Origin: Patagioenas fasciata | Taxonomy: Eukaryota | Direction: 5' to 3' | DNA: 64,000 nucleotides | Assembly: GCF_037038585.1 (NCBI RefSeq) | Contig: NC_092556.1 | Location: forward strand, 514,619 to 578,618 | Part shown: positions 1-64,000 of the stretch, piece after piece | Layout of the letters: each line of letters begins with the position of its first letter | Position numbering within the stretch: position 1 is the stretch's first letter | The notes under the pieces: model-generated | What the model was told of the DNA's origin: nothing | Seen by the model: only the letters and a program-made list of their open reading frames with translations | The model's database searches: none | Translations under genes and position numbers: made by a program

Positions 1-98
1 GTGGGGCAGGAAATGTGTGGGGCGGGAAATGTGTGGGGCGGGGAGGGGGGGGGGAGGAGACAAAGCAGCCGGAGCCGGGATTGGGGGGCAGAGGGGGC

Positions 99-104
99 TT
101 TATT
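99..104 (-). promoter_or_regulatory. SPNS1: SPNS1 polyadenylation signal AATAAA (minus strand)
   Basis: Plus tttatt at 99-104 is AATAAA on the coding (minus) strand, ~25 nt downstream of the stop at 129-131. Confidence 0.6.
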
Positions 105-128
105 GTGGGGGGGGGGGGCACTTGTGGG

Positions 129-220
129 TCAGCCCAGCACGTGGGCCACGGGCACCTTGGCGGGGCGGCCGCCGTGGGGCACGACCAGGGCGTCGGGGTC
201 GGCGTCGTCGGGGGGGAGGC
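129..220 (-). CDS. SPNS1: SPNS1 (spinster homolog 1, MFS transporter) exon 12 (terminal coding exon, includes stop)
   Basis: Minus-strand acceptor ggttgcccccag|GCC (AG = plus 221-222). Phase-1 exon encodes (G)LPPDDADPDALVVPHGGRPAKVPVAHVLG*, with stop TGA at plus 129-131. It aligns with the human SPNS1 C-terminus STDDRIVVPQRGRSTRVPVASVLI (human sequence recalled from memory). Confidence 0.8.
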
Positions 221-237
221 CTGGGGGCAACCAGGGG

Positions 238-1898
238 TGGTTGGTTAATGGGGGCAATGGGGGCAATGGGGACAATGGGGGTGATGGGGCAATGGGGGTA
301 ATGGGGGCAATGGGGGTAATGGGGCAATGGGGGTAATGGGGCAATGGGGGGAATGGGGGCAATGGGGGCAATGGGGGTAATGGGGCAATGGGGGCAATGG
401 GGGCAATGGGGCAATGGGGGTCAATGGGGCAATGGGGGCAATGGGGGTAATGGGGGCAATGGGGGCAATGGGGGCAATGGGGCAATGGGGGTCAATGGGG
501 GCAATGGGGGCAATGGGGTCAATGGGGGTAATGGGGCAATGGGGGTAATGGGGGCAATGGGGGCAATGGGGGCAATGGGGCAATGGGGGGCAATGGGGCA
601 ATGGGGGCAATGGGGGCAATGGGGCAATGGGGGCAATGGGGGCAATGGGGGCAATGGGGCAATGGGGGCAATGGGGCAATGGGGCAATGGGGTCAATGGG
701 GCAATGGGGCAATGGGGGCAATGGGGGTAATGGGGGCAATGGGGCAATGGGGCAATGGGGGCAATGGGGGCAATGGGGGCAATGGGGGCAATGGGGCAAT
801 GGGGACAATGGGGGCAGTGGGGGCAATGGGGGCAATGGGGGCAATGGGGGCAATGGGGCAATGGGGGCAATGGGGGCAATGGGGCAATGGGGGCAATGGG
901 GGCAATGGGGGTAATGGGGCAATGGGGGCAATGGGGCAATGGGGGCAATGGGGGCAATGGGGCAATGGGGGTGATGGGGACAATGGGGGCAATGGGGGCA
1001 ATGGGGTCAATGGGGCCATGGGGACAATGGGGGCAATGGGGTCAATGGGGCAATGGGGGCAATGGGGGCAATGGGGCAATGGGGCAATGGGGTCAATGGG
1101 GCAATGGGGACAATGGGGGCAATGGGGGTAATGGGGCAATGGGGGCAATGGGGGCAATGGGTATCAATGGGGGGCAATGGGGATCAATGGGGGGCAATGG
1201 GGGCAATGGGGGCAATGGGGACAATGGGGGTAATGCGGACAATGGGGACAATGGGGGTAATGGGGACAATGGGGACAATGGGGGTAATGGGGGTAATGGG
1301 GCAGTGGGGGCAATGGGGGCAATGGGGGGCAGTGGGGGCAATGGGGCAATGGGGGCAATGGGGACAATGGGGCAATGGGGGCAATGGGGCAATGGGGCAA
1401 TGGGGGCAATGGGGACAATGGGGCAATGGGGGCAATGGGGCAATGGGGGCAATGGGGGCAATGGGGACAATGGGGGCAATGGGGGTGATGGGGGCAATGG
1501 GGACAATGGGGGTAATGGGGACAATGGGGACAATGGGGGCAATGGGGCAATGGGGCAATGGGGACAATGGGGACAATGGGGGTAATGGGGGTAATGGGGC
1601 AATGGGGGTCAATGGGGCAATGGGGGCAATGAGGCAATGGGGTCAATGGGATCAATGGATCGATGGGGTCAATGGGGATCAATGGGGATCAATGGGGGTC
1701 AATGGGTCAATGGGGGTCAATGGGGATCAATGGGGGGCAATGGGGGCAATGGGGTCAATGGGGGCAATGGGGGCAATGGGGACAATGGGATCAATGGGTC
1801 AATGGGGTCAATGGGGATCAATGGGGATCAATGGGGGTCAATGGGTCATTGGGGTCAATGGGGTCAATGGGGTCAATGGGGTCAATGGGGGGGGGGTG
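238..1898. repeat. Tandem minisatellite (GGGGCAATGG / GGGGTCAATGG family, ~10-11 bp unit) filling SPNS1 intron 11
   Basis: Direct reading shows hundreds of near-identical units of gggggcaatgg, with variants gggacaatgg, ggggtaatgg and ggggtcaatgg. Confidence 0.9.
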
Positions 1899-1914
1899 GT
1901 CACGTGCCCCTCAC

Positions 1915-2083
1915 CTCGCGCCTCCCGCAGCGCTCGCGCGCGGTCCCGCGGGAGCGTGAGGGCGGATCCCAGGAAGGCCCCGCCCCCCAGGGCGGCCACG
2001 AAGGGGCAGAGCAGCAGCGCGCGGCCCAGCGCCTGCGCAGAGCGCAGCCACGAGGGGGCGGGGCCACGCAGCGCGTCACTCAG
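1915..2083 (-). CDS. SPNS1: SPNS1 exon 11
   Basis: Acceptor ccccgccccttcccccag|CTG (AG = plus 2084-2085). Encodes LSDALRGPAPSWLRSAQALGRALLLCPFVAALGGGAFLGSALTLPRDRARALREAR(G). Donor GCGAG|gtgagg. Matches human ...SEFRALQFSLMLCAFVGALGGAAFLGTAIFIEADRRRAQ. Confidence 0.85.
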
Positions 2084-61800: not shown

Positions 61801-61821
61801 CTATGGGGCAGCCCCACGGAC

Positions 61822-61968
61822 CCGCCTGTAGGCCTGGATGGTGCCCCAGACCCACGGCCGCTCCGGGTTGTGGCGCCGCGCGAGCGCCCAGGTCACCGTG
61901 GCCAATGGGGGGTCCAGGGCGCTGAGCTCGGCGTCCAATAGGAGGCGGACGCCCCGCCCCACGGCGGC
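61822..61968 (-). CDS. PRODH2: PRODH2-like exon
   Basis: Acceptor ccaccgaccaatcccag|GCC. Encodes AAVGRGVRLLLDAELSALDPPLATVTWALARRHNPERPWVWGTIQAYRR. Donor CAGGCGG|gtccgt. Matches human PRODH [48 protein letters not shown]. Confidence 0.75.
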
Positions 61969-61979
61969 CTGGGATTGGT

Positions 61980-63440
61980 CGGTGGGGGAGCAGAGGGGGC
62001 AATGGGAGACGGTGACCCATAGAGACCCATAGAGACCCATAGAGACCATAGAGACCCATAGGGACCCATAGAGACCCATAGGGACCCATAGAGACCCATA
62101 GAGACCCATAGGGACCCATAGGGACCCATAGGGACCCATAGAGACCCATAGAGACCCATAGGGACCCATAGAGACCATAGAGACCATAGAGACCCATAGA
62201 GACCATAGAGACCCATAGGGACCCATAGAGACCATAGAGACCATAGAGACCCATAGAGACCATAGAGACCCATAGAGACCATAGAGACCCATAGGGACCC
62301 ATAGAGACCCATAGAACGCCATAGAGACCCATAGAGACACATAGGGACCCATAGGGACCCATAGAGACCCATAGAGACCCATAGAGACCCATAGGGACCC
62401 ATAGAGACCCATAGAGACCCATAGAGACCCATAGGGACCCATAGAGACCCATAGAGACCCATAGGGACCATAGAGACCCATAGAGACCATAGAGACCCAT
62501 AGGGACCCATAGAGACCCATAGGGACCCATAGGGACCCATAGGGACCCATAGAGACCCATAGAAGACCATAGAGACCTATAGAGACCCATAGAGACCATA
62601 GAGACCCATAGAGACCCATAGAGACCCATAGGGACCCATAGGGACCCATAGAGACCCATAGGGACCATAGAGACCCATAGGGACCCATAGAGACCCATAG
62701 AGACCCATAGGGACCCATAGAGACCCATAGGGACCCATAGAGACCCATAGAGACCATAGAGACCCATAGAGACCATAGAGACCATAGAGACCATAGAGAC
62801 CCATAGGGACCCATAGAGACCCATAGAGACCATAGAGACCCATAGAGACCCATAGAGACCCATAGGGACCCATAGAACCCCATAGAGACCCATAGAGACC
62901 ATAGAGACCCATAGAGACCCATAGGGACCCATAGAACCCCATAGAGACCCATAGGGACCCATAGAGACCCATAGGGACCCATAGGGACCCATAGAGACCC
63001 ATAGAACCCCATAGAGACCATAGAGACCCATAGAGACCCATAGAGACCCATAGGGACCATAGAGACCCATAGAGACCCATAGAGACCCATAGAGACCATA
63101 GAGACCCATAGGGACCATAGAGACCCATAGAGACCATAGAGACCCATAGAGACCCATAGGGACCCATAGGGACCCATAGAGACCCATAGAGACCATAGGG
63201 ACCCATAGAGACCCATAGGGACCCATAGAACCCCATAGAGACCCATAGAGACCCATAGGGACCCATAGAACCCCATAGAGACCCATAGAGACCCATAGGG
63301 ACCCATAGAACCCCATAGAGACCCATAGAGACCATAGTGACCCATAGGGACCCATAGAGACCCATAGGGACCCATAGGGACCCATAGAGACCCATAGGGA
63401 CCCATAGGGACCCATAGAGCCCCATAGCTCCCACCCAGCC
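61980..63440. repeat. Tandem repeat (gacccatagagacccataggg family, 10-11 bp units) in a PRODH-like intron
   Basis: Direct reading. Confidence 0.9.
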
Positions 63441-63469
63441 CCATAGCTCCTGCCCCATAGATCTCTCAC

Positions 63470-63550
63470 CTTGGCCACCTCCTCAAGGCGCCTCAGCGCG
63501 ACCCCCAAGTGCCGGTTCTGGTTGGGGGTCAGAGCGGGAAGAGCCGCCTC
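63470..63550 (-). CDS. PRODH2: PRODH2-like exon (5'-most in window; gene continues beyond 64000)
   Basis: Acceptor catcccccccacag|GAG. Encodes EAALPALTPNQNRHLGVALRRLEEVAK. Donor GCCAAG|gtgaga. Matches human PRODH ...EEEELQMTRMLQRMDVLAKK. It is directly consecutive with exon 61822..61968 in the protein alignment. Confidence 0.65.
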
Positions 63551-64000
63551 CTGTGGGGGGGGATGTGGGGCAGGACCCACACATTGGGATCTATGGGGCT
63601 GGCCCCACACATCTGAGCTGTGGGGCACTGGAGCCATCGAAAGGGGATCTATGGGGTTCTATGGGGTTCTATGGGGTTCTATGGGGCTGGGTGACACATG
63701 GGGGGGTTCTATGGGGCGCTATGGGGCAGAGGGACCCATAGAGTTGGGTTCTATGGGGCAGAGGGACCCATAGATTGGGCCGCTATGGGGCAGAGAGAAC
63801 CATACAATGGGTTTCTATGGGGCGGGGTGACCCATACATTGGGGCTCTATGGGGCGCTATGGGGCAGGGGGACCCCGCCATGGGTCAATATGGGGTGGGA
63901 CCCACAGATGAGGTTTCTATGGGGCAGGGGGATCCATATAAATGGGGGGTCTATGGGGATCTATGGGGCTGGGAGCCATAGATTGGGGTTCTATGGGGCG

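Follow-up and report, generated by a model that had tools for sequence, protein, structure and literature searches.

The window, by which the whole 64,000-nt stretch of contig NC_092556.1 is meant, was analysed over its full length for its potential to form G-quadruplexes (G4) and i-motifs. It has a G+C content of 59.7%, a strong GC skew that alternates block by block, and a tandem repeat coverage of 89.8% as determined with Tandem Repeats Finder (TRF). The non-repeat islands are short, correspond to exons or promoters, and translate into exons of four vertebrate genes; the window is a cluster of SPNS1, INO80E, MAZ, and a proline-dehydrogenase gene, with introns and spacers that consist of about 90% tandem repeat. 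SPNS1 (133..18660, minus strand) has approximately 13 short exons and introns full of repeats. Its exon map, including the C-terminal exon, was placed by tblastn and is supported by tblastx against woodpecker SPNS1, and the predicted protein matched the SPNS1 structure at 3.8e-50 (phmmer against PDB) and bird SPNS1 fragments at 68-74% identity. INO80E (20238..26644, plus strand), of which the first and last exons are firm and the middle exons approximate, was recognized by a Pfam PF24237 match at 1.4e-23, by tblastn matches, and by the terminal residues DDELVIDIPE*. MAZ (32182..38859 and beyond, minus strand) is represented by zinc-finger exons, the exon map of its 5' end being approximate; its best full-length named matches were bird MAZ, tblastn located it at 2.5e-68, and its exons are colinear with those of zebra finch and dipper MAZ. 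A proline-dehydrogenase-family gene (Pro_dh; 47330..63642 and past the window end, minus strand) was assigned by a Pfam Pro_dh match at 3.2e-11, and its exons are colinear with the Pro_dh gene located upstream of MAZ in zebra finch and dipper. The order and orientation of Pro_dh followed by MAZ are common to the window, the telomere-to-telomere assembly of zebra finch (CM109805.1), and dipper (OY759713.1). The best protein matches of SPNS1 and MAZ were from birds, at only 60-74% identity. These bird matches, the bird synteny, and the bird-type repeat filling described below support the avian origin guessed in the original prediction, which had been made from the letters of the window. The window is probably part of the euchromatin of a dot-type bird microchromosome, its genes having their orthologs in human 16p11.2. 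A scan of the window against Rfam at gathering thresholds gave no matches.

Canonical G4 motifs were defined as four runs of at least three G with loops of 1-7 nt, and G4Hunter was used with a scoring window of 25. The plus strand carries 301 non-overlapping motifs and the minus strand 517 (818 in total), which corresponds to 12.8 per kb and 38.7% of bases, and an overlapping count, in which every run that starts a valid four-run motif is included, gave 848 and 1718, or 2,566. The original statement that the pattern occurs thousands of times is thus accurate for the overlapping count and too high for the non-overlapping one, and the stated spacing of 3-8 nt between GGGG tracts describes 57-61% of consecutive runs of at least four but not the remaining runs. 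The three repeat units quoted there are present exactly, 48, 4, and 4 times, starting at 251, 5417, and 48433, respectively. Motifs composed of runs of at least four G numbered 211 and 278 on the two strands (489 in total). G4Hunter scoring of both strands did not fall below the usual thresholds: the absolute score exceeded 1.2 at 55.9% of positions, 1.5 at 43.6%, and 2.0 at 16.3%. An i-motif is said, after Wright et al., to call for four C-tracts, with tracts of at least five C favouring near-neutral pH; strict patterns of this C5 type numbered 228 (non-overlapping) and covered 10.3 kb. At the level of sequence, the window has genuine G4 and i-motif potential, which exceeds the thresholds by a wide margin.

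For 62 non-redundant arrays (53.5 kb), the 120 nt at the centre of each array were folded as a single strand using the G4-aware model of ViennaRNA, which uses RNA energy parameters and is indicative only for DNA. A G4 was present in the minimum-energy fold (MFE) of 43 of the 62 arrays, comprising 39.8 of the 53.5 kb, or 74% of array bases. The strongly skewed, G4-prone arrays (32 of 62; 30.7 kb; 57% of array bases) all had a G4 in the MFE, with a mean free-energy difference (ddG) of about -56 kcal/mol. Hairpins won in the 19 arrays that had no G4 in the MFE, and 12 arrays (8.1 kb), such as those at 14877-17322 and 35478-36891, were devoid of any G4 motif, so that the description of nearly every satellite as G4-prone was too strong. 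The first of these, an array of 47/92-bp units in about 52 copies (14877..17322, 2.4 kb) inside an SPNS1 intron, has zero motifs, 0% of positions above 1.5, and no G4 in the MFE, and is the longest G4-poor stretch of the window. The second, GACCAGTAT x157 (35478..36891), has 93% matches and no G4 potential at all. Exons are depleted in G4 signal (14.9% vs 45.6% of positions above 1.5), yet they are not the only G4-poor islands as had been claimed: G4-poor stretches of at least 150 bp total 9.0 kb, of which exon accounts for 5% and non-G4 satellite for the rest. The predicted switching of the G-rich strand between arrays, also within a single gene, was borne out, with 15 switches at the array level and seven inside SPNS1.

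Each 47-bp copy of the array at 14877-17322 holds the palindrome CCCACACGTGTGGGG with the E-box CACGTG; the array is hairpin-prone and not G4-prone. Throughout the window the dominant context of G-runs is (A/T)GGGG, with 1,409 occurrences of ATGGGG and 1,015 of TTGGGG, and a period of 9 bp is prominent among the units, which together occupy about 11 kb at this period. A single unit shared by all arrays was considered and ruled out, because the commonest word, ATGGGG, reaches a density of 1 per 40 bp in only 28 of the 62 arrays; the arrays belong to several repeat-unit families.

Dinucleotide shuffles within 2-kb blocks yielded 132 and 244 motifs on the two strands (SD about 7 and 12; total 376) and 24.1% of positions above 1.5. 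The excess of the window over its local shuffles is therefore about 2.2-fold for motifs and 1.8-fold for positions, and roughly half of the G4 signal is plain composition. Composition as the only explanation was ruled out by the same 2.2-fold excess. Since local shuffles give about half of the motifs, composition and repetition together explain most of the signal. G4-free arrays were found to be as long as G4-rich arrays and more homogeneous (85% vs 75.5% matches, p=0.005).

Other loci were scored in the same terms, with cat, a mammal-like Logan contig, and an alligator scaffold containing 44% N serving as outgroups. Tandem repeats cover 90% of the window at 12.8 motifs per kb, 85% of the zebra finch MAZ locus at 5.6, 58% of the dipper MAZ locus at 3.2, and 70% of the woodpecker SPNS1 locus at 11.1, as compared with 2% of the cat MAZ locus at 1.2 motifs per kb and 3% of the alligator MAZ locus (44% N) at 0.9. 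Among the loci compared, repeat filling is bird-specific (58-90% in four birds vs 2-3% in cat and alligator). The motif density of the window is approximately 10 times that of the cat MAZ locus. The zebra finch MAZ ortholog has the same architecture as the window at less than half the motif density and a lower GC content (49% vs 60%); repeat filling is common to the birds but does not closely track G4 density. The most frequent strand-collapsed 6-mers were ATGGGG in the window, GGGTCA/GGTCAC in zebra finch, and CTCCCA in woodpecker, and this difference in repeat words between birds indicates that the expansions are lineage-specific or independent. Because G4-free arrays expand equally well, and because zebra finch and dipper are highly repetitive with few motifs, G4 potential is not needed for expansion, and the proposal that G4 is required for it was discarded.

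Strand switching in the window was found to be polar: on the sense strand, the 5' ends of introns are rich in G and their 3' ends are rich in C. When 50 nt were trimmed from each intron edge, the mean sense-strand G4Hunter score fell almost steadily from about +0.6 in the first intron deciles to -0.2 in the last. The first 200 nt scored higher than the last 200 nt in 25 of 34 introns (Wilcoxon p=0.00025), the other nine departing from the trend, and all five introns with ends of opposite sign run from G to C. Taken by itself, the window shows the trend at p=0.005, and the loci of zebra finch, dipper, and woodpecker show it at p=0.03. The sign of each orthologous intron is kept across bird orders although the repeat units differ, and in the two MAZ introns that could be compared, the cat and the mammal-like contig have the same signs in short, non-repetitive introns. 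This polarity fits the pyrimidine-rich acceptor sides of introns and the donor-side GGG peak of GC-rich introns; in GC-rich isochores, GGG words reach their maximum in donor flanks (Voelker et al. 2012, PMC3606033). Within-intron positional polarity was not found in the passages searched in the bird dot-chromosome papers (Smeds, Formenti, Hron).

Strongly G-rich positions make up 25.7% of intron positions on the sense (non-template) strand and 19.9% on the template strand. G-clusters on the non-template strand of a transcribed region favour R-loops. The effects on replication, transcription elongation, and R-loop formation that the original prediction expected of the window as a whole would, by such rules, apply mainly to arrays with G-runs on the non-template strand, and hence unevenly; the polarity predicts that sense-G arrays only could form R-loops or RNA G4s.

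Inverted arrays flank exons of MAZ and SPNS1. The MAZ exon at 32182-32359 lies between a 3.3-kb C-rich array with a 292-bp unit (28847..32186, minus strand) and a 1.5-kb G-rich array with 147/450-bp units (32381..33886, plus strand), which form the arms of a kb-scale inverted repeat (inverted cosine 0.88) with 386 inverted pairs, arms of up to 356 nt that are 83-97% complementary, and the 178-bp exon in the spacer. The SPNS1 exon at 5159-5300 is flanked by a CCCCATGAC-type array as the left arm (4439..5066, minus strand, motif coverage 0.90) and by GGGGGTCAT x51 as the right arm (5308..5759, plus strand, TRF), with an inverted cosine of 0.55 and a duplex energy of -213 kcal/mol. At the DNA level, such exon-flanking inverted arrays could fold into cruciforms; at the RNA level, they could loop the exon out. 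They were not found in the passages searched in Smeds 2026 and Formenti 2025. Cognate exon flanks were on average more complementary than non-cognate ones (-124 vs -105 kcal/mol, one-sided p=0.019), with four exons at -180 to -213 kcal/mol. Complementarity of cognate flanks was set aside as a general rule because this excess is weak.

Copies of exon borders were detected in SPNS1. Two extra copies (2594-2631 and 2686-2723, minus strand) of the donor-side 38 nt of the exon at about 2781-2880 were found with blastn at 97% and 100% identity; an 81-bp x7 array (2866-3435) begins inside the acceptor-side end of the same exon; and the acceptor-side 58 nt (6998-7055) of the exon at 6900-7055 recur with 100% identity at 7170-7227 (minus strand). 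These copies, which lie in adjoining introns and include a splice donor or acceptor, match the published 'exon stuttering'. Near-identical unit families also recur at a distance in different genes: one at 18698-19398 and 62014-63427 (GACCCATAGG/A), 42 kb apart, and another at 17698-18260 and 25732-26431 (GACCCATAAGT and its complement), 7 kb apart. This recurrence indicates that the arrays are not all strictly local in origin.

Taken together, these results are best explained if the introns and spacers were filled by local tandem amplification of short seeds, as in the 'sequence stuttering' and intronic minisatellites described for other birds. The region is very GC-rich, the seeds would already have carried a G-run or a C-run, and repetition of a 9-21-bp unit with one run of 4-6 G automatically satisfies the G4 rule on the strand that bears the G-runs and the i-motif rule on the complementary strand. 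Within an intron, sense-strand G-richness tends to mark the donor-side part, in the manner of G-run intronic splicing enhancers, and C-richness the acceptor-side part, like pyrimidine tracts. Position in the intron would set the strand of the G-runs, and amplification of local intron asymmetries would yield the strand switches; G4 potential may then add to polymerase stalling and instability. The window-wide G4 potential, although a genuine physical property, would accordingly have arisen mainly as a side product of tandem amplification and not as a set of discrete evolved elements, a reading to which, together with the dot-chromosome assignment, a probability of roughly 0.8 is given. Three parts of this reading are inferred: that G4s fold in vivo, that they contribute to the stalling of polymerases, to dropout in sequencing, and to instability of the repeats, and that the seeds originated in sequence close to splice signals. 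Several observations weigh against it. Motifs are 2.2 times as frequent as in local dinucleotide shuffles, so that something beyond composition favours G-run units, and this excess could be due to amplification itself or to selection. Related units are met again in other introns and other genes, in either orientation, which a model of purely local seeds does not predict. In addition, the polarity is based on 34 introns that are not independent of one another and whose exon borders are approximate, at one locus, and its comparison with mammals covers two introns only.

An alternative in which G4 drives the arrays, with G-run seeds stalling replication forks and slippage or template switching at these sites making and inverting the repeats, is considered unlikely. 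It would account for the 57% of array bases that are strongly G4-prone and for the motif excess over shuffles, five adjacent related arrays are inverted as fold-back or template-switch events would give, and replication stress at G4 has been proposed as one possible mechanism in Hron 2026 (PMC12954441). However, the 12 motif-free arrays (8.1 kb), among them GACCAGTAT x157 (93%) and the 2.4-kb array of 47-mers, are equally long and more homogeneous, and zebra finch and dipper reach 58-85% tandem repeat at 3-6 motifs per kb, which is heavy expansion without high G4 density. Equally doubtful is the idea that selection maintains G-run and C-run arrays as splicing devices, in which hnRNP F/H would bind at intron 5' ends, C-rich arrays would serve as extended pyrimidine tracts, and pairing between arrays would loop out repeats or exons. 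The polarity and its replication in other birds are consistent with it, as are the sign of each orthologous intron, kept across bird orders and mammals despite differing units, the higher complementarity of cognate flanks, and the (A/T)GGGG context, which resembles the known (A/U)GGG splicing enhancers (as listed in the references of PMC3606033). But amplification of a pre-existing asymmetry gives equal polarity without selection, intergenic spacers hold the same arrays (43.7-47.3 kb), nine of the 34 introns do not conform to the polarity, and the effect of complementarity is weak. An artefact of assembly or sequencing, in which G-runs would be created by collapsed or chimeric repeats and homopolymer errors, is very improbable: regions of this kind do have low and biased read depth, but three independent bird assemblies, the telomere-to-telomere zebra finch among them, show the same architecture at orthologous genes, the exons are intact, correctly ordered, and have open reading frames, and comparable intron repeats were confirmed with raw nanopore reads (Hron 2026, PMC12954441).

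Tandem amplification of G-run-bearing seeds thus remains the preferred reading, and the window is an example of a published phenomenon rather than a discovery. It has the traits of dot-chromosome minisatellites and stuttering, namely repeat-filled introns, dot-chromosome genes, bird-specificity, exon-border copies, and species-specific units. For avian dot chromosomes, two preprints describe introns that are more than 70% minisatellite and G4 motifs that are enriched more than 8-fold, with a coding-strand excess in introns (Smeds 2026, bioRxiv 10.1101/2025.10.17.683159; Formenti 2025, bioRxiv 10.1101/2025.10.14.682431). As in the window, introns there are more than 70% repeat, and G4 motifs, direct repeats, and A-phased repeats co-locate with degenerate minisatellites; the prominent 9-bp period of the window differs from the multiples of 10-11 bp given for zebra finch. 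Four bird G4 motifs, from loci other than the window, were validated by circular dichroism, and non-B DNA was negatively correlated with HiFi read depth (Smeds 2026, 10.1101/2025.10.17.683159). Exon-border copies also belong to the 'sequence stuttering' of chicken, for which G4-linked replication stress is named as one possible cause, and the gene list of that work places MAZ and SPNS1 among the stuttering genes on chicken chromosome 38 (Hron/Elleder lab 2026, PMC12954441). As in the window, introns there are filled with local, imperfect tandem blocks that measure tens to hundreds of bases, with exon-border copies alongside; the window differs in that related units also turn up in other introns and genes in either orientation, which is more than a strictly local origin would give.

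Hidden sequences of chicken contain 79% tandem repeat, 57% GC, and 37% G4 content, in comparison with 90%, 60%, and 39% in the window, and their non-detection was predicted better by tandem-repeat content than by GC (Li 2022, PMC9021737). The claim that non-B structures hinder sequencing was made both there and by Beauclair et al. 2019 (PMC6792250); those figures are genome-wide bulk values, whereas the window is one fully resolved 64-kb locus. The suggestion that G4 density explains gaps in older assemblies is in agreement with this and with the dot-chromosome work, except that G4 is one contributor, whose effect is confounded with those of GC and repeat content. At base resolution, the locus makes it plain why many bird genes seemed to be missing, since small exons lie among kilobases of G4-, i-motif-, and hairpin-prone minisatellites. 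Polymerases and assemblers cope badly with minisatellites of this type.

G-run intronic splicing enhancers of GC-rich vertebrate introns were reportedly described by McCullough and Berget. These enhancers are like the window in having GGG words on the sense strand in donor-side flanks that arise with GC-rich isochores (Voelker et al. 2012, PMC3606033), and differ in that the GGG words of the window, known from sequence alone, form amplified arrays whose lengths run from hundreds of bases to kilobases. A tentative extension, somewhat less doubtful than the splicing-device alternative but still rather unlikely, is that arrays of bird dot chromosomes follow a splicing-related polarity whose sign was inherited from short ancestral introns, and that exons between kb-scale inverted arrays could be looped out in paired transcripts, resulting in skipping or circular RNA. 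Should this apply throughout the genome, an orientation compatible with splice signals would shape repeat-filled introns or be the reason why they are tolerated. The polarity and the exon-flanking inverted arrays may merit a wider test, as they tie repeat expansions to splicing signals.

The main G4-prone units of the window include GGGGCAATG, GGGGGTCAT, and GGGGGGAATTT. In the last SPNS1 intron, AATGGGGGC x186 (247..1891, TRF) has its G-runs on the plus strand, which is the template strand for SPNS1, with a motif coverage of 0.85, 92% of positions with G4Hunter above 1.5, and a G4 in the MFE (ddG -66 kcal/mol). It is followed by CCCCATTGC x90 (3447..4259, minus strand), an inverted copy of the same unit (10-mer cosine 0.58, inverted). 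Beyond the inverted pair around the exon at 5159-5300, TRF, G4 scoring, and folding delineated a CCCCATTGTCCCCATCAC array (5780..6882, minus strand), TGTCCCCAATGTCCCCAA x74 (8059..9401, minus strand), and GGGGTCATGGGGTCACAG x55 (13300..14285, plus strand) in SPNS1, as well as TTTTGGGGGTGAAATTGGGGA x67 (20933..22350, plus strand) in INO80E intron 1. Arrays of GGGGTCACCTGGGG and TGGGGACAT (9641..10943, plus strand) are located around the SPNS1 exon at 10643-10729. The strongest G4 and i-motif candidate is CCCCCATCC x190 (11424..13114, minus strand), with 100% of positions below -1.5 and a ddG of -126 kcal/mol. Upstream of the MAZ zinc-finger exon, TGGGGACACTGGGGGCTA on the plus strand is followed by CCCCAGT/CCCCATT arrays on the minus strand (39148..42193, inverted cosine 0.38). 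The last large Pro_dh intron contains GGGGGGAATTT x290 (47725..50959, plus strand), with 82% of positions above 1.5 and a G4 in the MFE, and other Pro_dh introns contain CCCATAGACCCC-type arrays and a C-rich array with a 441-bp unit (54120..61816, minus strand), broken by a G4-free array (55947-57216) and the exon at 55748-55945.

Immediately upstream of the MAZ zinc-finger exon, G4-dense arrays of GGGGGA and GCGGCGGGGGTGGGGG (38857-39147) translate as a proline-rich open reading frame on the gene strand and may be coding or 5' untranslated region. The spacing from MAZ to SPNS1 is 13 kb in the window vs approximately 385 kb on chicken chromosome 38, and the neighbours downstream of MAZ are CLN3 in zebra finch, SLX1/BOLA2/GDPD3 in dipper, and INO80E/SPNS1 in the window; these differences would indicate frequent rearrangement of this dot-chromosome region. 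Tandem units with GC-box/KLF-like words (GCCACGCCCC) lie upstream of MAZ at 42636-43342, and a 79-bp unit x7.6 with a GC-box and CCAAT lies inside INO80E at 24704-25296; both arrays have the appearance of promoter-like modules in repeated form. YY1 is known to partner with the INO80 complex, and an INO80E intron contains tandem 73-bp units made of CCAATATGGCCGCC and AAGATGGCCGCC (23915-24600), which presumably resemble YY1-type sites (AAGATGGCGGC), a likeness that may be coincidental.

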